This document shows positions 6,522 through 40,608 of a DNA stretch of 64,000 nt, piece by piece. The position numbers and the translations under genes are program-made. The notes beneath the pieces were generated by a model, which worked only from the letters and a program-made list of their open reading frames with translations, ran no database searches and was not told the origin of the DNA. Within the stretch, counting starts at the first letter, position 1, and each line of letters begins with the position of its first letter. The stretch comes from a virus: the IMG/VR virus record IMGVR_UViG_3300045199_000074; one strand, 5' to 3'.

Positions 6522-6535
6522 AAATAATTCCTTTC

Positions 6536-6922: not shown

Positions 6923-6991
6923 GCAATCTTCCTGAAAGGTAATTTATTCCACGATATATTATAGGCATTATTTATTATCGGAAGGCAAATT

Positions 6992-7708: not shown

Positions 7709-7756
7709 CTTCATCCTGTTAATACGTGAGCATTAAAAGGTAAAAGGAATTATTCA

Positions 7757-8215: not shown

Positions 8216-8224
8216 GGAGTTAAA

Positions 8225-8794
8225 ATGACCGTCAATAATAATACAAATCGTTTTGTCCAGACCCTGAACACCGTTCTTGAGAACGGTCGAGCAGAACGCG
8301 AAAAATTTCTTTCATATCTATCGGCAGCGGTAACCGAAATTACTAAGACACGAGAAGACCGTGATGCGGCAATTGCACAGGTTCGTGATTTGAATACGAA
8401 ATATAAGGGTGCGGTTGATAATATTCGACAACTGCAGCAGGTTAATAAGCGTCTTGAACATGATGTGCAGACTATGATGTCGGCACTAGAAGCTGCAACT
8501 CGTGAGTTTGCGCATTCTGATGCACAGATGGTTGATCGAGTTGTAGCTCTTGGAAATGAGTTCAATCTGCCAGGGCTGGTCGAACATGGTCGCACCCCCG
8601 CTGCTCCACGACCTCGCACGGTATCTTCAGCTCCACTTCAGACCCCGGCACCACAGCGTCGTGCTGTAGCTCGTGTAGCTCCTATGGCTGATAATAACGT
8701 TATGGATGATGATTACACCAAGACAATGCATGAGCTTGGCCGACTTCTTAATTCTTCGTCATCCTCGACTAAACCAACAATCCCACTGATTTAA
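8225..8794 (+). CDS. hypothetical coiled-coil protein
   Basis: SD AAGGAG; heptad-rich N-terminal half, Pro-rich tail. Confidence 0.75.
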   Translation: MTVNNNTNRFVQTLNTVLENGRAEREKFLSYLSAAVTEITKTREDRDAAIAQVRDLNTKYKGAVDNIRQLQQVNKRLEHDVQTMMSALEAATREFAHSDAQMVDRVVALGNEFNLPGLVEHGRTPAAPRPRTVSSAPLQTPAPQRRAVARVAPMADNNVMDDDYTKTMHELGRLLNSSSSSTKPTIPLI

Positions 8795-8801
8795 AATGAA
8801 T

Positions 8802-8840
8802 AAAAAAGGCGGCGCTTTTACAAACGCCGCCTTTTTTATT
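8802..8840. terminator. bidirectional intrinsic terminator
   Basis: aaaaaaggcggcg-N10-cgccgcctttttt between convergent genes. Confidence 0.85.
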
Positions 8841-8853
8841 CACTTGTTTATTT

Positions 8854-9414
8854 TTATTGCTCCAGCTCTGATTCCCAATATAAAAAATCAATCCAATCTT
8901 TCGGGGCAGGACTGCTTTTAATGAGTTTCTTGGCATTGCGAGCCAACTCGAACTGTGTTGGTTTCCGTGGTGTTGGGTCCGGAAACATCTTACTCTCTTT
9001 TGGCGTTCTATTTGCTTTGCGCAAATTGCACGGCGTACAAGAGCAGACAATATTTTCCCAACTCGTATCTCCACCACGAGATTTAGGCATGACATGGTCA
9101 AAGGTCAGCTCTGCAGTCGTTAATTGTTTTGAACAATAAACACACTTGCCATGATCTCTTAGCCAGATATTAGTTCGCGAGAAAGCAACGCAATGTGGCA
9201 CTTTTTTGTACTTTGTTAGAGCCACAACACTTGGTAGGCGAACAGCTTTATTTGGACTATTCACCTCTACGTCATATTCAGCAACACGAACAAGTTTGTT
9301 TAAAAACAGCCCTCTAACCGCTTCTTGCCATGTAAGCGTCTTCAATGGGAATATGCTTATTGGGCTAAAATCGGCATTCAGTAGTAGTGCAGGATAGCTA
9401 TTCTCGTAGATCAT
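8854..9414 (-). CDS. HNH endonuclease (McrA-like family)
   Basis: LLLNADFSP N-terminus, RDHGKCVYC, TFDHVMPKSRGG..WENIVCSCTPCNLRK. Confidence 0.93.
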   Translation of the reverse strand: MIYENSYPALLLNADFSPISIFPLKTLTWQEAVRGLFLNKLVRVAEYDVEVNSPNKAVRLPSVVALTKYKKVPHCVAFSRTNIWLRDHGKCVYCSKQLTTAELTFDHVMPKSRGGDTSWENIVCSCTPCNLRKANRTPKESKMFPDPTPRKPTQFELARNAKKLIKSSPAPKDWIDFLYWESELEQ

Positions 9415-9679
9415 GACATATTCCCCGTATCAAATTTAAAACCGGAGAAGAATACGAGATAAGTATTTTGTCCGGCTAATCGGCCGAACCGGACTTTGCC
9501 CATTCAACCAATAAGGTATTTTGTTGCAGAACGCGGATATTCTCCTGACAGAGGAAGCCACGCCCCTGCATTAATAATATCCCATGTTATCTGTAACGCG
9601 CTCATATTGATACCTTATTCCCCAACAATTGGGATGACTTATTCCTGCCTGAACACATTGATAATGTCAAACAGAAACT

Positions 9680-10663
9680 TCATCTTAATGAAGATGGTTT
9701 AAATGTTGTTACATGGTTGTCATTTAAACTGCCAATTTCCCCATTCACAATAATTGCTTTTATTTGTTCCTTATTAAGCTGATTTGGGATAACTGCGTCA
9801 ATATGTGGGCCATCAGTCCGGAGCGTTTGATGGATAATACCTACAAGTCGATCTCCAAGAATGCTTCTTGCAACCGGTCCCAGCTTATTTTCTGCCAAAT
9901 GTAGGATTGCTTGAACAGTGTCCGCAGCAGATGCGGCATGAATAGTCGCGAAAACTAGATGTCCGCTTGTAACTGCTTTTAGCAACTGTTCCGCAGCCTC
10001 TGATGACCTTACTTCTCCTATGAGGATGTATTCTGGGCGTCGACGCATAATTCCCCTTATGCTGGTTGCCCAATCTTCCTCATTTTTAATTTCTGTTTGA
10101 AGGCAATATCCTTTTTGAGCGATAGCACCTTGCATCTGATATTCTACAGGGTCTTCGCAGGTAATGGCCAAACCACCGAAAGTTTCTAAATAATATTTTA
10201 TGGCCGCAACTGACGTCGTTGTTTTTCCATCGCCTGTTCTGCCCCCAACAAGCACCAGTCCACGTTGCCTACCCCATCCGTAAATTTCCTTTAAAAGGCT
10301 CGTATTTATTCGAAGATCTTCCAAATCTGGCAAATCTAATGGTACAGCCCGAACTGCCGCCCATGCCATGTTCTCTGCAGCCATGAATCTGGAATAGCGA
10401 AGCCGCAATGCGCTATATTGGACAGTGCCATCGTCATCATCACGCTCCATTATCAATGCACGAATTTTTTCAATTGCAGGCATGTATTTTCTCGGAACTA
10501 TGTAATTCCCGGTTTCTTTAACTTTTGTTGGATCTGGTCGAAATCGCGTAGGCACATTCAGATGGTCCTCACTGATGGTCATATATAAATCAGTGAATGG
10601 TAGCTGCATGATATCGGCTTCAGGTAGAATCTGAGCGCTGGTATCGTTTCTATCATTGGACAT
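9680..10663 (-). CDS. DotB/TraJ-like (PilT family) secretion ATPase
   Basis: Walker A GRTGDGKTT, Asp box EDPVE, RRRPEYILIGEVR, His box GHLVFATIHA; DotA-like gene in the same window. Confidence 0.8.
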   Translation of the reverse strand: MSNDRNDTSAQILPEADIMQLPFTDLYMTISEDHLNVPTRFRPDPTKVKETGNYIVPRKYMPAIEKIRALIMERDDDDGTVQYSALRLRYSRFMAAENMAWAAVRAVPLDLPDLEDLRINTSLLKEIYGWGRQRGLVLVGGRTGDGKTTTSVAAIKYYLETFGGLAITCEDPVEYQMQGAIAQKGYCLQTEIKNEEDWATSIRGIMRRRPEYILIGEVRSSEAAEQLLKAVTSGHLVFATIHAASAADTVQAILHLAENKLGPVARSILGDRLVGIIHQTLRTDGPHIDAVIPNQLNKEQIKAIIVNGEIGSLNDNHVTTFKPSSLR

Positions 10664-10796
10664 CGTGGCTTTGCCTTTTTTGTTTCGGACTTAAACAAGG
10701 ATAGCTTGATAACTCTCATTGCCAAACGCCGGTGATTTTGCTTGATATCCATGCTGCAAAATGTAATAGAGATCTAAATAACAACAGGAGGCTTAT

Positions 10797-11450
10797 ATGG
10801 ATGGGCTTCAAATTAGCTCACTGAATTCTAAAAACACTAATCAGTATGTTTCTAAAGCCACTCTTAGATTGTTGAATGTCTATCAAGAACGCAATCATGT
10901 CTCAGATGTGTCCTTAAAAACATTGCTAGATGAGATTCTGTTAGAAACAGATGATGCATATAAACTTGCGGCCTCAAGTCTTAGGACGGATAAGCATACT
11001 CCAGATCACATAGAAGCTGAGTATAAACGCTTTCTGGCGGCACGCGGCCTGACTGCTACCAAGGTCAATATTGTATCATCTCGTTCAGTTTCTGCTCCAC
11101 AGTTGGAAACACGGCCTCCAGCTGAAATAATTGATATACCATTGCCAGTCCGTGGTCGCGGTCGTGCGCGTAAGCTTCGTCCTATGTTCAATGGGCATGA
11201 ACTTCCTAAGAAGGTCACGTCTATTGAAGAAACTATAACTGTAAAATGGATTATCTGCCTGGAAGACGGCAAGAAGGTGAAAGATTTGTCTCATCACCTA
11301 GTTTCATTTGGCTTGACCCCGAGCCAGTATCGTAAAAAATGGGGTCTTCCAGATAGTTATCCTATGCATGCGCCTCAGCTGATACTGCAACGAGGAGCTA
11401 CTTTCGAGGTGGATTACGTGACGGGGTTACGCCGTCGTGTTCGTAGTTGA
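10797..11450 (+). CDS. Ros/MucR-family regulator with N-terminal extension
   Basis: C-terminal IICLEDGKKVKDLSHHL..FGLTPSQYRKKWGLPDSYPMHAP; SD AGGAGG. Confidence 0.9.
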   Translation: MDGLQISSLNSKNTNQYVSKATLRLLNVYQERNHVSDVSLKTLLDEILLETDDAYKLAASSLRTDKHTPDHIEAEYKRFLAARGLTATKVNIVSSRSVSAPQLETRPPAEIIDIPLPVRGRGRARKLRPMFNGHELPKKVTSIEETITVKWIICLEDGKKVKDLSHHLVSFGLTPSQYRKKWGLPDSYPMHAPQLILQRGATFEVDYVTGLRRRVRS

Positions 11451-11467
11451 ATCCTTTCGACATTCTT

Positions 11468-11509
11468 ATTTACAGAAGGCGTGAAAAAATATTCACGCCT
11501 TCTGTAAAT
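11468..11509. terminator. 18-bp inverted repeat, probable terminator
   Basis: atttacagaaggcgtgaa-N6-ttcacgccttctgtaaat after the mucR-like gene. Confidence 0.7.
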
Positions 11510-11577
11510 TGTTAATAGATGTTTGTGTTTTTCATTTTTTGACCCCACCATTGTCTTTATATTGGTGGATTTTTATT

Positions 11578-12444
11578 ATGACACTGTCTTCAAATATACA
11601 TTCATTGTTGCGAGATATGCCTCGCGGGATATCATTTGCAGATCGCTTGAAGTGGCTAGAATGGCGTGAAACGTCTTCTCGTGGCGATGTTAAGGTGCAT
11701 TCTGAAGGTGTTGCGCGATTTGCTGTTAAACTGGCAAATGCTGTTGGGTTTGATACCGATTATATTGGAAAATTGAATACGGCAGCTCGTTGGCATGACA
11801 TCGGTAAATTAGCTACTCCGGACTCCGTTCTTAATAAGCCGGGTCGACTCGATGACTTGGAGTTGAAAGTCATGGAACTACACGCATCTGATGGTCATTC
11901 ATTACTCGGAAGTGATGCGCCACAGATGTGGCGTGATGTAGCGAAATATCATCATGAGCGCTACGATGGTTATGGGTATCATGGTCTAAAAGGCGAAAAT
12001 ATTCCTCTAGCAGCTCGATTAACTGCAATTGCCGATGTTTTTGACGCATTGACCCAGAAGCGCGTTTACAAAAATGGAATGACAGTTGAGGACGCATTAT
12101 GTCTAATGTCCAATAATGTCGATAGTCCAGGTTTTGGAAGACGAGCGTTTGATCCGATTTTTCTCCGTGTTTTTGTTGCCGATTGCCTTAATAAGGAAGG
12201 AATTAATTTCACAGATGAAGGACGAAAAATATTAGAGTCATACGCTATTTCTGATCCCATGAATGATATTGATGGAGATAAGTATCAAAATGAAGGCTGG
12301 CTTTTGAAGGTAAATGGGAAGCGATTGAAATATGTTCAGGCTGACAACGGTAATGATAGACTAGTTGAAGTATACAGCCCGACAGGTCAGTTGCTTTTTG
12401 ACGTGGGGCAACCTGAATTAATAAACGACCAAAAGCTTGCGTAG
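11578..12444 (+). CDS. HD-GYP domain phosphohydrolase (cyclic nucleotide phosphodiesterase-like)
   Basis: HS..V, HDIGK, LNKPGRL, HHERYDGYGY, ADVFDALTQKRVYK; start placed at ATG 11578. Confidence 0.9.
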   Translation: MTLSSNIHSLLRDMPRGISFADRLKWLEWRETSSRGDVKVHSEGVARFAVKLANAVGFDTDYIGKLNTAARWHDIGKLATPDSVLNKPGRLDDLELKVMELHASDGHSLLGSDAPQMWRDVAKYHHERYDGYGYHGLKGENIPLAARLTAIADVFDALTQKRVYKNGMTVEDALCLMSNNVDSPGFGRRAFDPIFLRVFVADCLNKEGINFTDEGRKILESYAISDPMNDIDGDKYQNEGWLLKVNGKRLKYVQADNGNDRLVEVYSPTGQLLFDVGQPELINDQKLA

Positions 12445-13292: not shown

Positions 13293-13367
13293 TGGTGCTG
13301 CAGGAGAGAATTGAACTCTCGACTTCCTCCTTACCAAGGAGGTACTCTACCACTGAGTTACTGCAGC
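13293..13367 (-). tRNA. tRNA-Thr(GGT)
   Basis: cloverleaf; CCTCC-TT-GGT-AA-GGAGG; encoded CCA. Confidence 0.97.
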
Positions 13368-13395
13368 AATACGATATTGATGGAAACGATGTTTT

Positions 13396-13471
13396 TGGTG
13401 GCAGTAGATAGGATTGAACTATCGACCTACGGCTTATGAGTCCGCCGCTCTCCCAACTGAGCTATACTGCC
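13396..13471 (-). tRNA. tRNA(CAT), elongator Met or Ile2
   Basis: cloverleaf with G1-C72 pair; CT-CAT-AA loop; CCA; Met versus lysidine-Ile not resolvable by eye. Confidence 0.9.
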
Positions 13472-13485
13472 AAAACTATGGTAAC

Positions 13486-13560
13486 TGGTGTCAATGGGAG
13501 GACTTGAACCTCCGACCACACGCTTATCAAGCGCGTGCTCTACCGCTGAGCTACACTGAC
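13486..13560 (-). tRNA. tRNA-Ile(GAT)
   Basis: CGCGC-TT-GAT-AA-GCGTG; CCA. Confidence 0.96.
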
Positions 13561-13568
13561 ATTTATTC

Positions 13569-13643
13569 TGGTGCGTGCAGGAAGGCTTGAACTTCCGACC
13601 TCTCCGTTATCAGCGGAGTGCTCTACCTCTGAGCTATACGCGC
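13569..13643 (-). tRNA. tRNA-Ile(GAT)
   Basis: CTCCG-CT-GAT-AA-CGGAG; CCA. Confidence 0.95.
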
Positions 13644-13667
13644 AAACTGTTAAACTATTAAATTGTT

Positions 13668-13742
13668 TGGTGGGTTCGGCAAGGATCGAACTTGCGGCCT
13701 TCGCCATGTCAAGGCGACGTTCTACCACTAAACTACGAACCC
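13668..13742 (-). tRNA. tRNA-Val(GAC)
   Basis: TCGCC-TT-GAC-AT-GGCGA; CCA. Confidence 0.97.
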
Positions 13743-13746
13743 GAAT

Positions 13747-13917
13747 TGGCCTGCCGAGCGGGATTTGCACCAAGAGCCACCACAGCTCCTTTTTCGCTAC
13801 CTTCCACCCAACTGACCATTTGATGATCTCGCTGCCCTTGGTTGAAGGGCTAGATTTCATCGGCCGAGTTCCTCACGGAATCCTCTGGTGGCTGCCCATC
13901 GATTGGGCCTTCGGCAG
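13747..13917 (-). ncRNA. 171-nt tRNA-like RNA with a large structured insert in place of the anticodon loop
   Basis: acceptor CTGCCGA/TCGGCAG + G + CCA; D-like arm GCCC-N7-GGGC; stem GCCACCA/TGGTGGC enclosing ~100 nt; T-like loop GG-TGCAAAT-CC with a weak stem. Confidence 0.6.
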
Positions 13918-13961
13918 TTACTGTTGCGAGATCGCCAATTCAGGCGCTTCATCGCGGAATT

Positions 13962-14037
<76 letters not shown>

Positions 14038-14049
14038 ATATGAGTTAAT

Positions 14050-14155
14050 GACTTTACCGCCGTGCAGGAATCGAACCTACCTTGGAACCGACAGGCCGCG
14101 CCCAGGTCCTCTTATGGATTCACACCACCCAGTTGGAGCATCCGGCAGTAAAGTC
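14050..14155 (-). ncRNA. tRNA-like element lacking CCA, extended closing stem (pseudo-tRNA or mimic)
   Basis: GACTTTACTGCCG/CGGCGGTAAAGTC closing stem; intact T arm GTAGG-TTCGATT-CCTGC; no canonical anticodon arm. Confidence 0.5.
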
Positions 14156-14202
14156 TCCGACGCATTCGCGCATCGGGATGATCGTTGACCGTGATGCCGA
14201 AG

Positions 14203-14279
14203 TGGTTGCGGGAGGAAGATTCGAACTTCCGGCCTTCAGGTTATGAACCTGACGAGCTACCTGGCTGCTCTATCCCGCG
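14203..14279 (-). tRNA. initiator-type tRNA-fMet(CAT) 1
   Basis: C1:A72 mismatch; TCAGG-TT-CAT-AA-CCTGA; ACCA. Confidence 0.93.
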
Positions 14280-14477
14280 AAAGGGGTCGAGGCCTGAATG
14301 ATCCCAGTACATCCGTGGTAATCTTTACGGGCCTCTACGCGGCAACGAATGCCGCAGTCTCATTGACGTCGCAATCATTGCGCCATCTTAATAATTGAGG
14401 GAAAACGCTTATCATTTCACACACTGCGGAAACGTTTCGAACCGCCGATGGGCTACTTTACTCGCGATTTCCCAAGC

Positions 14478-14555
14478 TGGTTGCGGAGGTCGGATTCGAA
14501 CCGACGACCTCAAGGTTATGAGCCTAGCGAGCTGACCTGGCTGCTCCACTCCGCG
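14478..14555 (-). tRNA. initiator-type tRNA-fMet(CAT) 2
   Basis: C1:A72 mismatch; CTAGG-CT-CAT-AA-CCTTG; ACCA. Confidence 0.92.
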
Positions 14556-14704
14556 TTAGCTTAGATGCCATATCTGGCAAATTCTGTTGGCGTTACTCTC
14601 CACGCCTGAAGTCTAGATCATTGCGATCACGGAAGCCCGATTAAAATACTTGGGCTACACGCATCCCTCTCGGGAGCGGAATATGCCGACACACGTTCGA
14701 CATC

Positions 14705-14779
14705 TGGTTGCGGAAGAGGGAATCGAACCTTCGACCTTCGGGACATGAACCCGATGAGCTGCCACTGCTCTATTCCGCG
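14705..14779 (-). tRNA. initiator-type tRNA-fMet(CAT) 3
   Basis: C1:A72 mismatch; three G-C pairs in TCGGG-TT-CAT-GT-CCCGA; ACCA. Confidence 0.92.
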
Positions 14780-14819
14780 TTTCTTATGACGTCCTTAAAC
14801 GTCAAATTTAGGTAATTAT

Positions 14820-14893
14820 TGGAGCGGATAGAGGGAATCGAACCCTCGTCTTCGACTTGGAAGGACGTTGCTCTACCATTGAGCTATACCCGC
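14820..14893 (-). tRNA. tRNA-Gly(TCC)
   Basis: GCGGGTA acceptor, U73, CT-TCC-AA loop; anticodon stem has two mismatches. Confidence 0.9.
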
Positions 14894-15015
14894 ATTTGTA
14901 ATTAGCCCCATCCTTGAAATAAGCTCCGACTGCTCTGAGCATATTTCTCGCTTAATTACATTGAGCCACCTTGAAATGTGTGCGGCTCCCCCTCTCCCAT
15001 TTTGGGATTAGAATT

Positions 15016-15091
15016 TGGTGGAGAATATCGGACTCGAACCGATCACCTACTGCGTGCAAAGCAGTCGCTCTCCCAGATGAGCTAATTCCCC
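15016..15091 (-). tRNA. tRNA-Ala(TGC)
   Basis: G3:U70; ACTGC-TT-TGC-AC-GCAGT; CCA. Confidence 0.97.
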
Positions 15092-15152
15092 ATAGTCCTG
15101 ATCATGGGTATTTAATTATTTATCGTCAAGGACTAATCCGATAAATAATTAT

Positions 15153-15227
15153 TGGAGCGGGCAAAGAGATTCGAACTCTCGACTTTCACCTTGGCAAGGT
15201 GACACTCTACCACTGAGTTATACCCGC
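15153..15227 (-). tRNA. tRNA-Gly(GCC)
   Basis: TCACC-TT-GCC-AA-GGTGA; U73; CCA. Confidence 0.97.
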
Positions 15228-15256
15228 AATTATTGACATCTAATGCTGTAATTAAT

Positions 15257-15268
15257 TGTCAAAGAAGA
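15257..15268 (-). promoter_or_regulatory. boxA-like antitermination site (internal)
   Basis: TCTTCTTTGACA, resembles rRNA boxA. Confidence 0.55.
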
Positions 15269-15428
15269 ACTTTTTAATAATGACACTCTCAGCACTAAAT
15301 GTATCTTCAAAATTCCTAACTGGCTGTTTTAGAACACTATATGGGCATGCACGAAAACTATTATCATCAGATTGTCGTTCTTCTGAGCTTCCATTTTTTC
15401 GCATACTGCACTCCTCTCAATTGCAATG

Positions 15429-15505
15429 TGGTACGTCCTGACGGGATCGAACCGCCGACATTCTCCGTGTAAAGGAGACGCTACTACCAGCTGAGCTAAG
15501 GACGC
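15429..15505 (-). tRNA. tRNA-Val(TAC)
   Basis: TCTCC-TT-TAC-AC-GGAGA; CCA. Confidence 0.95.
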
Positions 15506-15570
15506 TTATTTCATTCTGCTCGCCGCGATATTAATATCCGCGAGCTTTCAGGAAAATCCTGAAGTGAAAT

Positions 15571-15649
15571 TGGCTTGGGTGGCAGGACTCGAACCTGCGA
15601 CAAGACCCTGGTTAACAGCCAGGCGCTCTACCAACTGAGCTACACCCAA
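15571..15649 (-). tRNA. tRNA-Asn(GTT)
   Basis: CCTGG-CT-GTT-AA-CCAGG; G73; CCA; enlarged variable loop. Confidence 0.95.
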
Positions 15650-15747
15650 ATATGCGAATACCTGCTTTTAATATGTGAGAAGCAGCCAAGTTGGCGCTAA
15701 CACAAATCTCAAGAAAAGCATCCGCGAGACTTTATCGTTTCCATCAA

Positions 15748-15759
15748 TGTCAAAGAACA
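15748..15759 (-). promoter_or_regulatory. boxA-like antitermination site (leader)
   Basis: TGTTCTTTGACA, preceded by hairpins TGAACG-GCGA-CGTTCA and CTCTC-TACC-GAGAG. Confidence 0.7.
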
Positions 15760-15805
15760 TGCTCTCGGTAGAGAGTGATAGTGAACGTCGCCGTTCATGT
15801 TTATT

Positions 15806-16002: not shown

Positions 16003-16038
16003 AAAAGAAAAGGCCCCTTCCGTTTCCAGAAGGGGCCT
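16003..16038 (-). terminator. attenuator terminator of tRNA cluster 1
   Basis: AGGCCCCTTCTG-GAAA-CGGAAGGGGCCT-TTTCTTTT. Confidence 0.9.
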
Positions 16039-16065
16039 CGGTTCTTCAGAACCTTTGGGATTTTG

Positions 16066-16188
16066 CTACCTCGCGTTAATCCCTACTTCGACACCCTTCT
16101 GTGCGGCATGCACGACAATACCACGTCCGCCCGCCATATTGGCGGTGACGTTGGTGGTATTAATCGCGATAGCTTGCACGAAACGCAT
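16066..16188 (-). CDS. putative attenuator leader peptide MRFVQAIAINTTNVTANMAGGRGIVVHAAQKGVEVGINAR
   Basis: 40-aa ORF with upstream AGGAG, between a promoter and the terminator; 31/40 residues are A/V/G/I/N/T/M. Confidence 0.8.
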   Translation of the reverse strand: MRFVQAIAINTTNVTANMAGGRGIVVHAAQKGVEVGINAR

Positions 16189-20856: not shown

Positions 20857-20992
20857 AGTGAAATCCTTTCTCCAATTTCTTTTACCCTTATATTTTACAA
20901 CATAATTCTTGTCAACATTATTTTCCAATTAATTTTGTTGCATGCAAAATTTAAAGTTAATATTATTATTAATTAATAATACGGAGCTTGAT

Positions 20993-23086
20993 ATGTTCGA
21001 TCTTCTAACGACACCGGGCACTACTGATATCGCCTATGATTGGATCGGAGTGCTGTTCCCAACCAATGAGAATAGCGCTTTTGGCGCAGCTTTCCAAACA
21101 TTTACGTCTATGCTTGGCATGCTTGGAGGTCTTTTTTTAGGTTGGCATGTGATAATAGGCATTGTGTCTTCTGCATATAGTGGAAAAGTTTTGGGGGATA
21201 GATTTCACCAAATTTGGGCTCCGTTACGTGTGGTCATCGGATTTGCAATGCTAATCCCATTGGGAAGCGGCTTCTCTTCGGTTCATTATATATTGAGGGA
21301 TGTTATCGGTAAAGCTGCTGTCAATATGGGGAATGCTCCTATCATAGCATACATCGATCACTTGGCCAAAAATGGTGGTGATGTTAATATGACCTCTATG
21401 GCTGGTACTTTTTTGATTAGAGAAATCATTGAACGAGAAGTCTGTGTTATAGTTCGTGATGCTATTGATAACGTATCGAAACCCCAGCTTCCTAATAGTG
21501 CTGGATTCACGGTTCCAGTGGTAGGTGGCGATTCTGATTCAGCTACTAGACATATTACTCGTTGGTCGTACGGTTCGTGTGGTTCATTCGGGTTTGAGAC
21601 CGTTTATGCCGATACGGGTGTTAAATCAGCGGACAATTCAGCTACAAGTAATCTTAATGTTGCCTACAAAGCTTTCCACGACAAGCGAGCAGTTGCCACC
21701 CAGGAAATGATAGACACACTCCGTTCTCGTGGCTTCACTCCTGAATTGCAAAAGGCACTCGGAGAGTATTTCAGTAAGAAGTCTTATAGTGAGTTAGCTT
21801 CTGCTGGAATTGCTAAGAGTTTGGAGCAAGGTGGGATCACAATTAATGCTGTTGGTATTTTAATGAATGATCTCGGTGCTACTTGGAACTCAAAGGTTCA
21901 ACAGGCAGCACGTGAAATATATAATGCTTCTGCAAGTGAGAGTAAGGACGCTTTGGCGAAGCGTATCGAGACTTATGGCTTCATGGTGGCTGGTACTTAT
22001 GAACGTGAACTATCGAAAATTTCTGGAAACACATCGCGCTTATCGAACGCTATGCCGTTCACTACTATTCCGAATCCTGGTACATCATATATTGATGCGT
22101 ATCGAGCAGCTGTTGACGCGATCTATCTCAATCGTAACCTAGATTCAGATGAGCTTCTCGCAAAAGGTGGTGCAGATATGTCTGATGGAGGTGATGCCTT
22201 AAGTTCATTGATGAATAAAATCATGCCATCAATGGATGTATTGCAAAGGAAATCTCATTTATCTAGTGACCCAGTCGGAGAGATGATATCATTTGGACAC
22301 ACACTTCTCGCATTTGCACAAGTTCTAATTCTGGGCGTATTAGCTGCTGTTTCACTATCTGAGGGAGGGGCTGGTAACGCTGTTGCGGCTTTCTTTGGTG
22401 CAAAGGGCGTCGCTGCTGGTCTGCAATATCTATCTCAATGGATATCATATTTTATTCTGATTCTGATCGTGGTGGGTGTATTACATGCATATATTTTGCC
22501 TATGATACCTATGATCATGGTTTTTGTTATGGGTATATCGTGGTTGGTTTTATTTTTGGAAGCGGCTATTGCTGGCGTTCTTTGGGCTTTTGCATTTATT
22601 CGAATGGATGGTCAAGAATTTTTTGATAGGCATCAAAGCAATGGTGTTAGCCTGCTATTCAATCTATTTTTGCGACCAGCAATTGGGATGTTAGCATTCA
22701 TTGGTGGCATTATTTTGCTCCCAACGATGCTGAGAGCGTTGGATCTGATTTGGAACGATGCATTTTATGCTCAAGCTGGTTCAGCATGGACATTTACAGG
22801 ATTATTCTGGTTGGCAACGAATCTTGTTATGTATTTTTGGTTACAATGGCACCTTACTCTCCGTCTATTCGGATTGGTTCCAACAATTGCTGATCGTGTA
22901 GGTCATTGGATGGGCTTCTCTGGTGGGCATGGTTATAACGATGGCCAAGAAACTACTGCAGCCGTTGGTGCCGCTGTCGCGGCAGGTACCGCAGTGTCGA
23001 AAGCGCCAATTAATCCTCAGGTTAATCTGGATGCGAAGAAAAAGAGAGAAAATGCCCCACCTCCTCCTCATGAAGAGGGGAAATAG
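20993..23086 (+). CDS. DotA/TraY family type IVB secretion membrane protein
   Basis: SAYSGKVLG..WAPLRVVIG..LIP, large periplasmic domain, AYILPMIP, LFLRPAIG, PTIADRVGHWMG; start placed at ATG 20993 after GGAG. Confidence 0.9.
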   Translation: MFDLLTTPGTTDIAYDWIGVLFPTNENSAFGAAFQTFTSMLGMLGGLFLGWHVIIGIVSSAYSGKVLGDRFHQIWAPLRVVIGFAMLIPLGSGFSSVHYILRDVIGKAAVNMGNAPIIAYIDHLAKNGGDVNMTSMAGTFLIREIIEREVCVIVRDAIDNVSKPQLPNSAGFTVPVVGGDSDSATRHITRWSYGSCGSFGFETVYADTGVKSADNSATSNLNVAYKAFHDKRAVATQEMIDTLRSRGFTPELQKALGEYFSKKSYSELASAGIAKSLEQGGITINAVGILMNDLGATWNSKVQQAAREIYNASASESKDALAKRIETYGFMVAGTYERELSKISGNTSRLSNAMPFTTIPNPGTSYIDAYRAAVDAIYLNRNLDSDELLAKGGADMSDGGDALSSLMNKIMPSMDVLQRKSHLSSDPVGEMISFGHTLLAFAQVLILGVLAAVSLSEGGAGNAVAAFFGAKGVAAGLQYLSQWISYFILILIVVGVLHAYILPMIPMIMVFVMGISWLVLFLEAAIAGVLWAFAFIRMDGQEFFDRHQSNGVSLLFNLFLRPAIGMLAFIGGIILLPTMLRALDLIWNDAFYAQAGSAWTFTGLFWLATNLVMYFWLQWHLTLRLFGLVPTIADRVGHWMGFSGGHGYNDGQETTAAVGAAVAAGTAVSKAPINPQVNLDAKKKRENAPPPPHEEGK

Positions 23087-23110
23087 GACTTTCAATAAGT
23101 TGTCTTGATC

Positions 23111-23135
23111 AAAAAAGGCCCTCCGGGGCCTTTTT
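23111..23135. terminator. bidirectional terminator (dotA-like gene / tRNA cluster 2)
   Basis: aaaaaaggccc-tccg-gggccttttt. Confidence 0.85.
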
Positions 23136-23210
23136 CTTATGTATGATTGTGAGGGGCATCTTTTTATGGCCACTTTGTTTAGTTAGTTTTTTAAAATAGA
23201 ATTTAGGTGA

Positions 23211-23285
23211 TGGTACCGCTGAGGAGAATCGAACTCCCATTTTCTGATTGAAAATCAGACGTCCTAACCATTAGACGACAGCGAC
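23211..23285 (-). tRNA. tRNA-Glu(TTC)
   Basis: D arm GTCTAATGGTTAGGAC; TCTGA-TT-TTC-AA-TCAGA; CCA. Confidence 0.96.
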
Positions 23286-23287
23286 AC

Positions 23288-23364
23288 TGGCGGCGATGAC
23301 GGGAATCGAACCCGTAACCTTCTGATCGACAGTCAGATGCTCTAACCAATTGAGCTACACCACC
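23288..23364 (-). tRNA. tRNA-Asp(GTC)
   Basis: TCTGA-CT-GTC-GA-TCAGA; G73; CCA. Confidence 0.96.
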
Positions 23365-23365
23365 G

Positions 23366-23437
23366 TACCGCCAACGGGGTTCGAACCCGTGTCACCGCCT
23401 TGAGAGGGCAGCATCCTAACCACTAGAAGATGGCGGC
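23366..23437 (-). tRNA. tRNA-Glu(CTC), CCA not encoded
   Basis: CTGCC-CT-CTC-AA-GGCGG; only one C separates the discriminator from tRNA-Asp. Confidence 0.93.
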
Positions 23438-23492
23438 TTATCAAGACAACTCGCCGAACCTTTCAGTCAGTTTGTTTGTTCTTGATGATCTA

Positions 23493-23560
23493 TTTATTGC
23501 ATATTAAAAAACTGTCGTCAATATATAAAATTCATTTTCTTTAATATTTTCAATAACTTA
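23493..23560 (-). promoter_or_regulatory. internal promoter of tRNA cluster 2 with upstream motif
   Basis: TTGACG(23521-23516)-17 nt-AATAAA (weak -10, TG extension); TAA-N4-TTGAAA at 23560-23548. Confidence 0.6.
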
Positions 23561-23613
23561 GGTTGATTTCAATAGAAATCCGCTCGCTGCCTTTGGCCTC
23601 GTTAAAACTGCTA

Positions 23614-23667
23614 TCATTTGGTTTTGTCACGTTCTCGTTCGTCGCTATCGTCGTCGCCTTCTGGCAT
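23614..23667 (-). CDS. acidic micro-ORF MPEGDDDSDERERDKTK
   Basis: strong SD AAGGAG; 8/17 residues D/E. Confidence 0.5.
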   Translation of the reverse strand: MPEGDDDSDERERDKTK

Positions 23668-23710
23668 TGACTTCTCCTTTCTTTCTCAATCATTTCGGGT
23701 TGTAACTTGG

Positions 23711-23740
23711 AAAATAAAAAAGGGCCGCAATTGCGACCCA
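23711..23740 (-). terminator. attenuator terminator of tRNA cluster 2
   Basis: GGGTCGC-AATT-GCGGCCC-TTTTTTATTTT. Confidence 0.85.
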
Positions 23741-23796
23741 AAAAAGAAATTACCTATCTTTTTAACGGCCGCGTGCTTGACGGCCGCCGATAACGG

Positions 23797-23862
23797 CTAC
23801 CGCCGGGTGATATCTTCTTCCCGACGTTCTTCAGTACGAATGATTAGTGATATGCCGTTCAT
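23797..23862 (-). CDS. putative attenuator leader peptide MNGISLIIRTEERREEDITRR
   Basis: SD GGAG; GAA GAA CGT CGG GAA GAA GAT block; lies between a promoter and the terminator. Confidence 0.8.
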   Translation of the reverse strand: MNGISLIIRTEERREEDITRR

Positions 23863-23884
23863 TTTTAACTCCAATGTTATGTAT

Positions 23885-23913
23885 GTTTTAAATGACCCTT
23901 TAGAAACAGTCAA
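23885..23913 (-). promoter_or_regulatory. sigma70-type promoter of leader 2
   Basis: TTGACT-17 nt-TAAAAC. Confidence 0.65.
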
Positions 23914-23983
23914 GTTTTTCCATTTTTCTATATGTTATTTCATAGTTTTCTATTACATTCGCCTTGAAAGATTTGAGGTGATC

Positions 23984-25150
23984 ATGAAAATCGACATTGC
24001 AGACCCTGGCATTCATGTAATTGGTGAACTTTTATCTAGCGGCGGGTATCAATCTCGTCTCGTTGGAGGTGCTGTTCGCGATATGCTAATGGGTATGAAA
24101 CCTAAAGATATGGATTTAGCGACCGATGCATTGCCAGAAATCGTAATGGAATTAGCATCTAGACAGGGTTATCGGGTGATACCAACAGGTCTTCAGCACG
24201 GCACTGTGACAATCGTTTATGATGACATCGGTTATGAAGTGACCACTCTTCGAAAAGATGTCGACACAGACGGCCGTCATGCAACTGTGGAGTATGTCAC
24301 CGATTTTGCCGAAGATGCTGCGCGTAGAGACTTCACCATTAACGCTATGTCAGCCTCTGTTGATGGCGAAGTTTATGATTATTTTGGTGGTTTGAAGGAC
24401 CTTGAGGAAGGTCGTGTCCGATTTGTAGGTGATGCACACCAGCGTATTGAAGAGGATTATCTGCGTATCCTGCGCTTCTTTCGTTTTCGAGCTCGGTTTG
24501 GAGGCGAAGAGACCGAACTCGATCTGAAGGCGATCAAAGATAATTCCCACGGCCTTTCCGGCATCTCAGTTGAGCGTGTCTGGAGTGAAATTGATAAAAT
24601 ATTACAATATTCAAATGGTACAGACCAGTTGGCGTTAATGGCCGATTTGGGTGTTGCCCAGGTTGTCGGCCTCCCGATTGACGAAGACAACATCACAATT
24701 GCGCGTGATGCAAGGGAGTTTGGCGCTCGTTCATCTGTGATGTTGGGCATTCTGGCAGGAAATGAAGATTATGCTGGAAGTCTTGCAACGCGCTGGAAGT
24801 TGTCCAATTCCGAGATGAAAGATGCAGTCTTGGCGTCTCAAATCATTGCTATTTCCGAATACGAACCCCATTACTGGATGACTCAGGCAGTAAACGGTCT
24901 TGATCCCACTGTTGCATGTCCTATTCTGTCTGCAATTGGTGCTCATGAAGCTGCAAAGGCTTTGTCTGGAGATATTCCCGTTTTCCCTCTTAAGGGGCGT
25001 GATCTCATTGGTTTAGTCGATAAAGGACCGACGATGGGAGCTGTTTTACGTGATGCCAACTCAAAGTGGATTGACTCCGGATTTAAGCTTACAAAAGAAG
25101 AGCTCATTGCCGATATTGTTAATGTTGGCCCAACTGTTGGTAGGCTGTAA
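23984..25150 (+). CDS. cca: CCA-adding tRNA nucleotidyltransferase (class II)
   Basis: VGGAVRD, KDMDLAT, EVTTLR.D, DAARRDFTINA, EDYLRILRFFRF; start ATG 23984 after GAGGTG. Confidence 0.93.
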   Translation: MKIDIADPGIHVIGELLSSGGYQSRLVGGAVRDMLMGMKPKDMDLATDALPEIVMELASRQGYRVIPTGLQHGTVTIVYDDIGYEVTTLRKDVDTDGRHATVEYVTDFAEDAARRDFTINAMSASVDGEVYDYFGGLKDLEEGRVRFVGDAHQRIEEDYLRILRFFRFRARFGGEETELDLKAIKDNSHGLSGISVERVWSEIDKILQYSNGTDQLALMADLGVAQVVGLPIDEDNITIARDAREFGARSSVMLGILAGNEDYAGSLATRWKLSNSEMKDAVLASQIIAISEYEPHYWMTQAVNGLDPTVACPILSAIGAHEAAKALSGDIPVFPLKGRDLIGLVDKGPTMGAVLRDANSKWIDSGFKLTKEELIADIVNVGPTVGRL

Positions 25151-29195: not shown

Positions 29196-31562
29196 TTAAA
29201 GTGAAGGGCCAGATCTGACCAAGTCATGATCCAAATGTGCTTCGTAAGCCTTACGAAGGGCAATAATATCGGCTTTCAAGGTGTCGTTGCTCTGCGTCAG
29301 ACACCAATCACGGAAGCTATGAGCAAGCTCGATCTCAGCGTCATCAGGTTGGCCTCCATCTGGTTTGCGTGTATGCGACCATGTGAATTCATTACCCTTT
29401 TCTCGTGATGCAACGATACGATCTTTCACGCTGCGCATCTGCTTCCAGAACGCATAAAATGGCAGCTTGACCTTGGTCATGTAGCCAACAGCATCTTCGA
29501 TCACCAAGCCTTCCACATGCTCACCGCCAACGCGGTAGTTCATGTCAGTAGTCGCCTTCTTGTGCCAGCCAGCGAACGAAGCAGCATTCTGGAATGTCAT
29601 CGCTAGCTTCTTCGTTTCGAGACCAAACTTTCGGCCAACAGCCTCGACCACGCTGAAACCTGCCTTCTCAAAACTTTCCGAACGACGAATAATATCGAGC
29701 AAAACTATTTTTGGTTTATCGTACTCGATCATGTGAGGGTCATTGAGCGGATCAATCACTTCCCACGTCATCGAAGATTCTGTATCACGAAGATAGCGAC
29801 GGATTTTCTCCAACTGAACGGCGCTCAGCTGGTTAATTGCAATATTCTTGAAAATATCAGCGAAATCACCATCTGGCGTGGATTTTGAAGCGATAAACAA
29901 GCTGTCTGTCTTTTCATCGTAACCCATATTTCCAAGGAAACCGTTATATTTCACGTAAAGTTTGATCGGGAATTGCATGTTTTTGGCAAGGTTTGCTATT
30001 TCAGTTTCTTCCCGTTCGCCCACATTGAAAAATTTATCGTATCCACGAGAAACTATTTTGCTCGTTTTCCGTTCAAGAAAAAGCCCGCGCGCCTTCACAA
30101 CAACATCATCCCAAGAACGGTCAAAAAACACCTTCTTGGTGAAATTAAGCGAATATACATGCGGGAATCGTTCGCTCGACTTTTCTCGAACGCCTTCATG
30201 TTCATGCATAGACTTCAGGAGACTTGAATCCATCTCTGTCGATTTTCCGTCAGGATTGATAATCCAATGGGGCAGCATTTTACGTTGAGCCTTTCTAACT
30301 TCTGTAATCCTGGTTTCGAGAGCCAGTCGCTCCTTGAGTGGTCGATAGACATGGTTCTTGAATGCTTTGGTGTTCCAACCATTGCCATCGAGAATGCAAA
30401 TTCGCAGATTGCCGCCGTGTTCGACTGAGTCTTCGAGATTGAACGAGTGTTCGGTGGCCGCAATATCAACATTGCCGTGATTGCGGTGTCCGTGAACCTG
30501 GAAACCTCGCTTGCTGTTGCGCTCGAACTGCTCATCAATCGGGTCTTCCCAGTGGCCTGTGCCATGGGAATATTGATTCAGAGAAATCAGGTGAGGCTTA
30601 TCGGGGAATGTGCTTAATCCTGCGTGGGTAACGAGAACCTCAGCGCCCTTGAAGCTGTACTGGAGAAATTCCTTAGCCTTCTGACATACGGCTTCAGCAT
30701 CAGCAGGAGTTATGCCTGCTTCGATAAGCTGCGGAAGCGTTCTGAGGGCGAACTCTCCACTTTTTGCATCTTCACCACGCGCCCAACGGTCGAGATGATC
30801 TTCATGATTGCCCCATAGAAGGGTGACGTTCTCCCTGTGAAGAGCATTGTCGACGAACCAGCGCATCACTTTGCCGTTTTCGATGCCTCGATCAAGCAGG
30901 TCTCCCACAAAGACGTACTTGTAGTCGTCATCAAAACCATTCGCGAGTGGCCCGCCTTCTCCCGCCAATACGGTGAAGCAACCTTGCAGGTCTCCAATGT
31001 GAATTACGCCCTTATAGCGGTCGCTAAAGTCATGAACGGGCTCACGTAGCCACGCATCCAGTTCACTTATGTGACTACCGTCTTCCTTGCCGTTAATAAT
31101 TGTAATGCCATCGACATCGTCTCTTATGCCAGCTTCGATGAGCTGTGCATGCATTTCTCTAACTCTGAACTCAGAAACCCGGTTAACTTCCTGGCGTTCA
31201 CTGTTTCGTTTCAACGCCAATTCTACTGGAATTGAAGACATATCAAGAACAGCGATTTCATACCGATGTGGTTTTGCCATATCAGCTAAACGCTTCAAGT
31301 TTGAACGTTCTATGAGCGTCGTGTCTATTGCTAGTGTCTCCCCTCTAGACATCCGCTCCGATGCGAATTGATTAAGCATCGCGAAAGCTCTCTCATTGAC
31401 ATCCTGATTAACGATCATTTGCCCTTCGCTTGTCAGGAATGGTGCCGCGATTGTCGATCTGATATTGTCGGCGGACAGCGTCCATTGCTCTATCCCTATT
31501 GCCTTGAGAGCGTGTGACTTTCCAGATCCAGGTTGGCCGCGCGTGATTATTAATTTTCTCAT
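29196..31562 (-). CDS. RNA repair enzyme: polynucleotide kinase + metallophosphoesterase + RNA ligase
   Basis: GQPGSGKS kinase; GDLQG/GDLLDRG/GNHE phosphoesterase; ARGLF, KFFN, KYNG (motif I), EGLVI, KVK ligase motifs. Confidence 0.9.
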   Translation of the reverse strand: MRKLIITRGQPGSGKSHALKAIGIEQWTLSADNIRSTIAAPFLTSEGQMIVNQDVNERAFAMLNQFASERMSRGETLAIDTTLIERSNLKRLADMAKPHRYEIAVLDMSSIPVELALKRNSERQEVNRVSEFRVREMHAQLIEAGIRDDVDGITIINGKEDGSHISELDAWLREPVHDFSDRYKGVIHIGDLQGCFTVLAGEGGPLANGFDDDYKYVFVGDLLDRGIENGKVMRWFVDNALHRENVTLLWGNHEDHLDRWARGEDAKSGEFALRTLPQLIEAGITPADAEAVCQKAKEFLQYSFKGAEVLVTHAGLSTFPDKPHLISLNQYSHGTGHWEDPIDEQFERNSKRGFQVHGHRNHGNVDIAATEHSFNLEDSVEHGGNLRICILDGNGWNTKAFKNHVYRPLKERLALETRITEVRKAQRKMLPHWIINPDGKSTEMDSSLLKSMHEHEGVREKSSERFPHVYSLNFTKKVFFDRSWDDVVVKARGLFLERKTSKIVSRGYDKFFNVGEREETEIANLAKNMQFPIKLYVKYNGFLGNMGYDEKTDSLFIASKSTPDGDFADIFKNIAINQLSAVQLEKIRRYLRDTESSMTWEVIDPLNDPHMIEYDKPKIVLLDIIRRSESFEKAGFSVVEAVGRKFGLETKKLAMTFQNAASFAGWHKKATTDMNYRVGGEHVEGLVIEDAVGYMTKVKLPFYAFWKQMRSVKDRIVASREKGNEFTWSHTRKPDGGQPDDAEIELAHSFRDWCLTQSNDTLKADIIALRKAYEAHLDHDLVRSGPSL

Positions 31563-31711
31563 TTTTCTTTTCTATATTTATTCCGTTTTCGTGATAATAA
31601 TTATAGATATCTTTGCAAGAGCCAAGCCCAAATAAGTTGACATTTTTATTTTTTAATAGAATTATTGCTTAATTAAAGCGAGCCTCGTTTTTCGTGTCGG
31701 GAGTTTATTGA

Positions 31712-32539
31712 ATGAGCAGAGTGGATGACGTCCTTGGTGATGAGATCAAGGCACATGAAAAATTGAATTCGGATCGTGCGGCAAATATCGGTGATCCTGT
31801 AGTGATACGTGTTGACGGCGCTTCATTTTCCAAGTTTACGCGCAATGCATCAAAACCATTTGATGAACGCATTTCTGCTGCAATGGTTCACGCAACAAAA
31901 TCTACTGTTGATGAATTTAATTGCCGTTTAGGCTATACGCAGTCTGATGAAATCAGTTTTTTGCTTTATAGCTCTGATCAGGAACTCCCTTTAAGTGGTC
32001 GTTATGAAAAATTGGCAAGCCGTTTTGCGGCACACGTAACTGCTCATTTCTTGAAAAAGGGTCTTGAGTTATTTCCTGAGCTAATTGGAGAAAGGCTTCC
32101 TTCTTTTGACGGCCGTGCAATGTCTTTTCCAACATTAGATTTGGCCGCCAAAGCAATCCTATGGCGTGAACTTGATGCTCGGAGAAATGCCGTCAGCATG
32201 GCTGCGCGTTCTGTCTTTTCGCCAAATGAACTTAGTGGGCGATCATCATGGGAACAGCGAAAAATGATGTCTGCACGCGGTCTGGAATTCGACGACTTTC
32301 CAGAAACTTTCAGGCGCGGCGCTTTTGTTCGGCGGGTGAAGGTAGTGAGAGAATTGACGGTAGAGGAGCTGTCTCGGATTCCTGAAAAACACCGACCAAA
32401 TGGGCCAGTTGAACGCTCAAGTATCGAGCAGGTTACTATGCCTAATTTGTCTCTTGTTGATAATCTTGCCGATGTCCTTGTTTTCAATGCTGATCCTATC
32501 GTCGCGGAACGCAAGTTTGCATTAGCCGTTACGGGGTAA
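31712..32539 (+). CDS. Thg1-like protein (tRNA-His guanylyltransferase / 3'-5' polymerase family)
   Basis: IRVDGASFSKFT, KPFD, GYTQSDEIS, FDGR, WRELDARRN. Confidence 0.92.
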   Translation: MSRVDDVLGDEIKAHEKLNSDRAANIGDPVVIRVDGASFSKFTRNASKPFDERISAAMVHATKSTVDEFNCRLGYTQSDEISFLLYSSDQELPLSGRYEKLASRFAAHVTAHFLKKGLELFPELIGERLPSFDGRAMSFPTLDLAAKAILWRELDARRNAVSMAARSVFSPNELSGRSSWEQRKMMSARGLEFDDFPETFRRGAFVRRVKVVRELTVEELSRIPEKHRPNGPVERSSIEQVTMPNLSLVDNLADVLVFNADPIVAERKFALAVTG

Positions 32540-40503: not shown

Positions 40504-40530
40504 AAAAAGGCCGCGAGGACATCGCGGCTC
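40504..40530 (-). terminator. attenuator terminator of tRNA cluster 3
   Basis: GCCGCGA-TGTCC-TCGCGGC-CTTTTT. Confidence 0.8.
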
Positions 40531-40554
40531 ACAAAGAGTACGAATATCCTTCTG

Positions 40555-40608
40555 CTAGGATGCGCAGTGCTGTGGTTTTCGTTTAAGTGCAGTCATAAAA
40601 GTTGACAT
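40555..40608 (-). CDS. putative attenuator leader peptide MSTFMTALKRKPQHCAS
   Basis: SD AAGGA; AAA CGA AAA block; followed by alternative 1:2, 2:3 and 3:4 stems. Confidence 0.7.
   Translation of the reverse strand: MSTFMTALKRKPQHCAS

Follow-up and report, generated by a model that had tools for sequence, protein, structure and literature searches.

A conserved leader and terminator ahead of a Glu/Asp tRNA array on a megaplasmid-type replicon, likely a transcription attenuator of the his type

Introduction

Multivalent leaders such as thrL and ilvL read several amino acids each, and pheM leads the pheST synthetase operon, which is attenuated. The cryptic tRNA operon of Anabaena is induced by stress via a protein repressor, and protective phage tRNAs have reportedly been treated in published work. 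The purpose of the tRNA arrays on phages and giant plasmids, codon supply or defence evasion, has long been an open question. The hisL attenuator comprises six RNA segments that terminate transcription when paired as AB, CD and EF and allow read-through when paired as BC and DE; it has clustered control codons and a U-tailed terminator, and the dosage of tRNA-His alters his attenuation (PMC10989985). Megaplasmid tRNA arrays have been described on pMPPla107 and pBASL58 (PMC6482414) and on the pMEGA plasmids, in which the tRNAs are blocked by amino acid (10.1101/2025.09.30.679422). For phage tRNAs, one study proposes that anticodon-loop changes give nuclease resistance (PMC10264068).

The window, i.e. 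the whole stretch of 64,000 nucleotides analysed here, carries on its minus strand a leader and terminator in front of three tRNA genes for Glu, Asp and Glu, referred to as the Glu/Asp unit. This element is real and conserved; its likely mechanism is a known one, and its target, tRNA genes, was not found in print. Like hisL of enterobacteria, the unit has a short leader, clustered control codons, six-segment logic and a U-tailed terminator (PMC10989985). Unlike hisL, it would control tRNA genes in place of enzymes of biosynthesis and respond to two or three amino acids; it is plasmid-borne, has a likely second leader and a putative second promoter downstream, and has no sequence match to Rfam leader families. 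It shares with thrL, ilvL and pheM-pheST the reading of several amino acids per leader and the use of attenuation to govern the translation machinery. Here, unlike in those systems, the output is tRNA, which would close a feedback loop, and the leader set of one replicon indexes most anticodons. T-box riboswitches are also tRNA-sensing terminator/antiterminator switches, whereas they bind uncharged tRNA directly without translation (10.1101/2020.06.17.157016), and by this reasoning destruction of a tRNA would not fire a T-box. No T-box match was obtained with Rfam at the locus, where the control codons sit in a translated frame. At gathering threshold the Rfam search of the window gave no family besides tRNA, and the 12 Rfam matches at E<=10 in 23430-23990 include no leader family; the 40-codon leader of another array in the window has a weak, non-significant match to Thr_leader (E=3.1).

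The unit also resembles phage and megaplasmid arrays that have been proposed to act against tRNA depletion or nucleases, in that it has loop variants (PMC10264068) and an adjacent tRNA ligase and CCA enzyme. The main texts of PMC6482414 and 10.1101/2025.09.30.679422 make no mention of 'attenuat' or 'leader', and PMC10264068 makes no mention of 'attenuat'. How tRNA arrays are switched on is not described in the available text of these three sources, and pMPPla107 itself carries leaders. Attenuation of tRNA genes was not found in a full-text literature search that covered chiefly papers outside subscription journals, so an earlier mention is possible.

Elements of the Glu/Asp unit

All coordinates in this section are on the minus strand. 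The putative promoter P1 (23885..23913) consists of a -35 box TTGACT (23913-23908), a 17-nt spacer and a -10 box TAAAAC (23890-23885). P1 is absent from the list that a consensus promoter scan produced for the window, yet it occupies the same position in 11/11 homologous loci, seven of them with TTGAC and four with a one- or two-base variant. These loci are the window, L004, L005 and eight metagenome contigs, that is, the arrays with sufficient upstream DNA; the leaders of L004 and L031 are identical, so these two are not independent. A Shine-Dalgarno sequence GGAG (23869..23872), seen as a Shine-Dalgarno-like purine run ahead of all 11 leaders, precedes leader ORF 1 (23797..23862), which has 21 codons between an ATG at 23862 and a TAG ending at 23797 and encodes MNGISLIIRTEERREEDITRR. 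Its control codons 11-17 (23812..23832) are GAA GAA CGT CGG GAA GAA GAT, i.e. Glu Glu Arg Arg Glu Glu Asp. An alternative 38-codon version of the leader, starting with TTG at 23913, was rejected, having no Shine-Dalgarno sequence, an overlap with the -35 box and no conservation.

In the leader RNA, GCGGY segments alternate with GYCGY segments, six in all. An intra-leader hairpin (23799..23826) pairs codons 13-15 with codons 19-21, the latter forming segment A, and a small post-stop hairpin (23786..23797) lies within the A:C anti-protector helix. The protector hairpin C:D (23764..23788; arms 23788-23780 and 23772-23764) is present in the minimum-energy fold. A predicted antiterminator D:E (23733..23772) would combine segment D, the 5' arm of the terminator and an inner helix between A-rich and U-rich arms that are evident in the sequence (23763-23757 and 23747-23741). 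The intrinsic terminator E:F (23716..23739), found in the sequence and by a terminator scan, has its stem at 23739-23722 followed by U6. The fold of the leader RNA has z=-2.8, with 1/200 shuffles equally stable.

The initial annotation had described a promoter, Shine-Dalgarno sequence, leader codons, protector, inner arms and terminator, all of which are found in the sequence on the minus strand. It did not include the upstream segment pair with the stop codon, mini-ORF 2 (23667-23614) or the second promoter (23521-23493). The overall composition of the leader shows no enrichment, with Glu and Asp at 5/20 residues (p=0.11); five Glu/Asp codons within seven consecutive codons occur in 0.5% of 400,000 simulated 20-codon ORFs. 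Contigs from four of the six RNA runs listed, compared over 22900-24400, have one flat depth each and may include DNA.

Conservation across homologous loci

The leader is 21 codons long in 11/11 loci, and its start and Shine-Dalgarno sequence are present in all of them. The stops (TAG in seven, TGA in three, TAA in one) all fall at one position, and codons 2-10 vary without a stop ever occurring among them. Fixed length, stop-free variable codons and three stop types together indicate that the leader is translated. Codon 15 is Glu, codon 16 is Glu or Asp and codon 17 is Asp in every locus. Non-conservation of the ORF had been named beforehand as one outcome that would speak against an attenuator, and the opposite is found.

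The stems are conserved as well. The intra-leader hairpin has an energy of -11.5 to -18.8 kcal/mol in 11/11 loci, and both of its arms are altered together in L042 and L047. The first pair of the post-stop hairpin is G-C with a TAG stop and A-U with TGA or TAA (four loci), and L035 has another A-U in place of G-C. The terminator lies 75-89 nt past the leader stop in all loci, with G-C/A-U exchanges. Changes on both sides are thus seen in the stop hairpin, the intra-leader hairpin and the terminator. Because a pattern was used to locate core segments C, D and E, the 11/11 count for their pairing is partly circular.

Thirteen of the 26 metagenome loci have no tRNA. In a search of 401 genomes, 17 have matches to DotA/TraY, the conjugation protein encoded next to the array, and tRNAs lie inside the 1.5-kb flanks only in G001. 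The viral collection has no DotA/TraY relative and no match to the leader pattern, and a search of plasmid DNA gave matches to tRNA bodies only, among the matches listed (best 30 of 108). A 'tRNA-Arg(UCG)' called in L038 was discarded as an Asp tRNA gene missing two anticodon-loop bases.

Modelled switching by the leader ribosome

In the model of the switch, the ribosome prevents pairing and the RNA stops short of the last terminator arm. Across the 11 loci the modelled antiterminator D:E has a mean probability of 0.92-0.99 with the A-site at codons 10-17, which falls to 0.81, 0.56, 0.36, 0.22 and 0.28 at codons 18, 19, 20, 21 and 22. The protector C:D rises as D:E falls and is favoured in the model with the ribosome at codons 20-22, and the modelled turn comes directly after the last Asp codon (codon 17). 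Switching is clear in 9/11 loci, partial in L032 and absent in L004, at equilibrium and by folding only.

When the spacer was shuffled, the switch observed in the window was reached by 3/200 shuffles on a looser measure and that of five other loci by 0-2 of 60 shuffles, so that the control is clear in 6/11 loci overall; the other five are not clearly above chance (10/60, 40/60, 23/60, 6/60 and 7/60). Full-length equilibrium folding, in the run covering loci before L005, does not discriminate, the terminator winning at most ribosome positions. For the ribosome-free RNA of the window, the finished form is predicted to adopt the intra-leader hairpin, protector and terminator, and the nascent form to antiterminate.

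These results can be read with the six-segment logic of hisL. A ribosome held at codons 10-17 would leave segment A free to trap C, upon which D would pair with E and the terminator would be blocked. A ribosome reaching codons 20-22 would break A:C, C would take D, and E:F would terminate. It is likely that the Glu/Asp unit is a his-type transcription attenuator in which ribosome stalls on the Glu/Asp codons let more RNA polymerase reach the tRNA genes. The initial proposal of an attenuator reading Glu and Asp codons thus gains support from the conservation of the leader, the modelled switch point and the matched leaders found on other arrays.

Arginine codons in the leader

A caveat raised from the start was that the leader has five Arg codons with no matching tRNA, and this is borne out, as tRNA-Arg is absent from the Glu/Asp array of the window. 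Among homologous clusters, which had been suggested as a place to look, tRNA-Arg is present in 1/11 alphaproteobacterial arrays with the leader, namely as tRNA-Arg(CCG) in L047, and in three distant megaplasmids. The arrays of a Variovorax plasmid, pMPPla107 and pPL1 combine Glu, Asp and Arg(CGN), and their leaders contain Asp/Glu/Arg runs. In the Variovorax plasmid (L100) the Arg tRNA is called with anticodon GCG, and the Glu/Asp/Arg leader has no clear Shine-Dalgarno sequence and no U-tailed terminator.

The switch might be real and still respond mainly to Arg, or to any slowing of ribosomes by antibiotics or stress, with the Glu/Asp match secondary. Besides the number of Arg codons, this reading can draw on the presence of Arg at codon 13 or 14 in 11/11 leaders, on the occurrence of Arg(CGA) inside all three Lys leaders, and on the model, in which any stall up to codon 17, including one at Arg 13-14, is predicted to open the switch. 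It is nevertheless considered unlikely, given how the individual codons behave. Arg 20 and 21 fall where the modelled ribosome favours termination; Arg 13 and 14 form a hairpin arm, and where codon 14 is Leu (L042 and L047) the other arm has changed to match; Arg 9 is kept in only 3/11 leaders. Furthermore, Arg is cognate in the Glu/Asp/Arg arrays of Variovorax and Pseudomonas, and a general sensor would not need separate leaders per array with matching at the level of anticodons. Four of the five Arg codons, the terminal ones included, can be explained as arms of the intra-leader hairpin, and this structural role together with the Glu/Asp/Arg arrays of Variovorax and Pseudomonas largely answers the caveat.

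Preference is therefore kept for a leader that reads Glu and Asp. Glu/Asp/Arg appears to be a recurring array type, and in the lineage of the window the Arg(CGN) tRNAs probably belong to another array, of the Phe/Arg type, which has a leader of its own. The central Arg codons may be left from a Glu/Asp/Arg array.

Genes and promoter downstream of the terminator

Downstream of the terminator, on the minus strand, lies mini-ORF 2 with its Shine-Dalgarno sequence (23614..23679; ORF 23667-23614), which encodes MPEGDDDSDERERDKTK; an acidic product, an MP start and a Shine-Dalgarno sequence are common to 11/11 loci. Next comes a region (23493..23560) with an AT-rich upstream tract and a putative promoter P2, TTGAC-N18-AATAAA (23521-23493). 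TTGAC-N18-NATA follows the terminator in all 11 loci, and a motif upstream of P2 is conserved in the alignment. We take the upstream tract to contain an IHF-like site and P2 itself to be an alphaproteobacterial sigma-70 promoter. The tRNA genes follow on the same strand: tRNA-Glu(CUC) (23365..23437), in which CCA is not encoded and which abuts the next gene with no spacer; tRNA-Asp(GUC) (23288..23364), whose anticodon loop is unlike that of the chromosomal copy in a related host at positions 37/38; and tRNA-Glu(UUC) (23211..23285), whose loop is unlike the corresponding copy at 32/38. A hairpin between A and T runs (23112..23135), found by the terminator scan and in the sequence, is likely a two-way terminator between the array and the DotA/TraY gene.

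Since P2 lies beyond the terminator and would bypass the switch in the Glu/Asp array, the switch probably adds to tRNA expression rather than gating it, with a basal supply that is independent of the leader; in this array it would likely top up the P2 level. An extreme form of this would be that P2 supplies the tRNAs and the attenuator is irrelevant to their output, read-through only making mini-ORF 2 or the attenuator being vestigial. The occurrence of P2 in 11/11 loci agrees with such a view, as do the strong Shine-Dalgarno sequence and conserved acidic start of ORF 2 and the loss of GAG from the leader of the window, which has no GAG codon though the array encodes Glu(CUC) (the other 10 leaders have GAG at codon 15). 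Several observations make it rather improbable, somewhat more so than a response to Arg. There is no intrinsic terminator between the attenuator or ORF 2 and the tRNAs in the 11 loci, only a weak 6-pair hairpin. The length of ORF 2 varies between 17 and about 50 codons, and the residues it encodes track the array type (poly-Arg ahead of Phe/Arg arrays), as those of a second leader would. Two tandem leader+terminator units precede the Glu/Asp/Arg arrays of Pseudomonas plasmids pMPPla107 (L110:2353) and pPL1 (L113:2234). Some sister arrays lack the space for a second promoter: the terminator of the Ser/Gln and Trp/Thr/Cys/Arg arrays lies 12-25 nt before the first tRNA, which makes the tRNAs the sole possible target. 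Because its residues follow the array type and because tandem units occur in both Pseudomonas arrays, ORF 2 is itself likely a second leader, and control of the tRNA genes by the attenuator remains the preferred reading.

Separately, three array types have a second mini-ORF past the terminator that begins with a (GAC)n or (CGA)n repeat, translated as Asp or Arg. Such cases are window 23667-23614 (-) and 15982-15923 (-) and the Phe/Arg arrays of L008, L017 and L002, and a weak conserved hairpin comes next.

Leaders of other tRNA arrays

Two further arrays of the window have leaders, both on the minus strand. A 40-codon leader (16188-16066) with a terminator (together 16012..16188) precedes a 14-tRNA Asn/Val/Gly/Ala/Met/Ile/Thr array (15649-13293); 30/39 of its residues are cognate to the seven amino acids of the array (p=1.7e-5), 10/10 anticodons are covered, and the modelled switch comes after Val23. 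A 17-codon Lys-Arg-Lys leader (40608-40555) with a terminator (together 40510..40608) precedes two Lys tRNAs (40337-40169). The Lys unit is conserved in Mesorhizobium and Rhizobium plasmids; its match is weak, with 2/16 cognate residues (p=0.23), no AAG codon and no modelled switch. Four tRNAs with a CAU anticodon and three loop types lie at window 13396-14779, and ATA is missing from the codons of the matching leader. Within 13293-15649, the spacer 14060-14175 (-) and others are structured and are called by neither ARAGORN nor Rfam; one combines a T-loop-like motif with a long closing stem, and these may be degenerate tRNAs or other RNAs. BoxA-like sequences head long arrays (window 15740-15760 (-), L009, L016, L001 and L002) and suggest rrn-type antitermination.

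Leaders were also picked on related replicons by a rule blind to composition, in which a 300-nt gap criterion splits long arrays. The rule gave a leader for 7/7 multi-tRNA arrays of the Mesorhizobium replicon and for 7/8 on pRlX5, where it returned a non-matching ORF for the Gln-Gln pair. On both replicons the true assignment of leaders to arrays ranks first among 5040, by residue and by anticodon. The leaders cover 37/38 and 40/40 anticodons on the two replicons, against 0.40-0.42 for wrong pairings. By residue score the own array is best for only 4/7 and 3/7 individual leaders, and individual Arg-rich or Thr-rich leaders often obtain a higher score with the Trp/Thr/Cys/Arg set. In an anticodon table that leaves out L033, the first array of L034, L018, L027 and L001, 30/33 leaders cover every anticodon of their own array; the blind rule chose the wrong ORF in L033, L034 (first array) and L110.

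Matching extends in part to isoacceptors. The leaders of Thr(GGU) arrays have 10 ACC codons, and of the 11 Thr codons in leaders of Thr(CGU/UGU) arrays nine are ACA or ACG, these being related sequences that are not independent. Of the three Lys leaders, the one with Arg(CCU) in its array contains AGG, and the two without Arg(CCU) in theirs do not. AGA occurs in all three leaders of Arg(UCU) arrays and also in two leaders of arrays without Arg(UCU). A modelled switch follows the matched codon run in 7/9 other leaders, and the Lys leader of the window and the Trp/Thr leader show no clean switch. In two Bosea plasmids (L001 and L002), Val, His and Pro codons occur in the Ser/Leu/Tyr leader only where the array has those tRNAs. 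Short matching ORFs without a terminator by the rule lie upstream of L018:2847 (Gln-Gln; the ORF is Gln-rich) and L002:16988 (Trp-Cys; the ORF contains Trp and Cys).

On five more distant plasmids a matched pick at p<0.05 was obtained in 8/47 clusters, and a Vibrio leader has 40/40 cognate residues. Matching leaders were not found on an Acidiphilium plasmid (10 clusters), in a large Variovorax array (11 clusters) or for the Ala/Val/Ala array of M. extorquens. In the chromosomal controls (G001), which are mostly single tRNAs and therefore have low power, an ORF with a terminator was obtained at 14/42 tRNA loci, with a lowest p of 0.046. Such control loci, and the unremarkable composition of the Glu/Asp leader, are what would be expected if a short ORF and GC-rich repeats stood ahead of a terminator by chance. 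Chance is scarcely credible, however, against the fixed length and position in 11 loci, the compensatory changes and the best-of-5040 pairing obtained twice, and conservation largely refutes it.

Proposed role of the attenuators

The controlled genes encode the tRNAs that would relieve the stall, so that a negative feedback loop on the working tRNA supply would result. With matched leaders on its tRNA blocks, the plasmid likely raises its output of a tRNA when ribosomes lack it. The trigger may be tRNA that is cut or blocked by host defences, or tRNA diluted by the plasmid's own translation load.

The attenuator could instead be a classical sensor of glutamate or aspartate starvation, raising tRNA to compete for the scarce amino acid. 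Stalls caused by uncharged tRNA would work the switch equally, and the architecture is that of attenuators of amino-acid operons (PMC10989985). Such a purpose is nonetheless very unlikely. Extra tRNA would be no cure for a missing amino acid, as a matter of reasoning; the leaders sample each anticodon of their array, with Thr and Arg codons split by isoacceptor; and in 13 alphaproteobacterial loci the anticodon loops of 32/42 Glu/Asp tRNAs differ from the chromosomal type, in varied ways. Compared with the chromosome of the related host, the anticodon loop is different in 3/3 Glu/Asp tRNAs and in 10/36 other plasmid tRNAs (p=0.03; one of the 10 is a mis-set call). Matching at the anticodon level favours, as we infer, the sensing of tRNA loss rather than of amino acid.

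As a purpose for such sensing of tRNA loss, the leaders may tentatively be regarded as a distributed surveillance panel, in which the leader of each array samples all of its anticodons and gives an inducible, target-specific counter-defence; this falls somewhat short of even odds. A host anticodon nuclease or tRNA-blocking toxin would cause a stall on the matching leader, and only the array with the loop-altered, resistant replacement would be turned on. The plasmid's ligase, Thg1 and CCA enzymes would support the replacement tRNAs. A purely defensive purpose is at odds with the 26/39 plasmid tRNA loops that are host-like, and easing the translation load of the plasmid is as good a candidate (cf. 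PMC6482414).

Were the arrays under feedback control, each leader would serve as a ready-made reporter, and the condition that opens it would show the purpose of the tRNAs. Attenuation would then extend from amino-acid and synthetase operons to tRNA genes, and the sorting of arrays by amino acid would be explained. Help in assigning ambiguous tRNAs and codon-specific biosensors of tRNA loss could also follow, and if the surveillance panel holds, the leaders are a list of the tRNAs that hosts attack. Cultured strains carry the system on their plasmids (R. leguminosarum TP16 pRlX5, Mesorhizobium sp. SP-1A, pMPPla107, pPL1 and Bosea), which makes it testable now.

Replicon and neighbouring genes

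Divergent from P1 is a gene for a CCA-adding-type tRNA nucleotidyltransferase (23984..25150, plus strand; Pfam PF01743/PF12627, with NCBIfam PRK13299 best and below cut-off). On the other side of the array lies the DotA/TraY conjugation protein (20942..23086, plus strand; TIGR04346 above cut-off), a plasmid-type replicon marker with its best plasmid match on pRlX5. A kinase-phosphatase-RNA ligase (minus strand) and Thg1 (plus strand) are encoded at 29196..32539 (Pfam PF09511, PF13671, PF00149 and PF04446; PHROG 8238 and 4717), 5-9 kb from the Glu/Asp unit.

The DNA of the window occurs in ant-metagenome runs. Among named sequences, its closest relatives are a Mesorhizobium sp. SP-1A contig of 1.19 Mb (88% on one protein) and R. 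leguminosarum plasmid pRlX5, both syntenic with the window. An SbcC-like protein also links the window to Bosea, Variovorax, Vibrio and Pseudomonas megaplasmids, and DotA/TraY, an SbcCD-like pair and tRNA arrays are held in common with pMPPla107-like, Dot-Icm conjugative megaplasmids. The GC content is 44% in the window, and 50% in the Mesorhizobium plasmid loci compared with 63% in the other contigs of that strain. No capsid or portal family was detected among the 21 window proteins scanned, and phage records gave three weak partial matches to the SbcC-like protein. From these sequence features, the replicon is probably a conjugative megaplasmid of a Rhizobiales host. The stretches 1-12400 and 29000-64000 of the window also carry chromosome-like genes: two UvrD, RecD2, MutL, PBP1A and an RpoH-like sigma factor, together with a C5 methylase, a Bax inhibitor-1 family protein, a RusA-like resolvase and a DnaE-like protein, the last recognised by sequence only.
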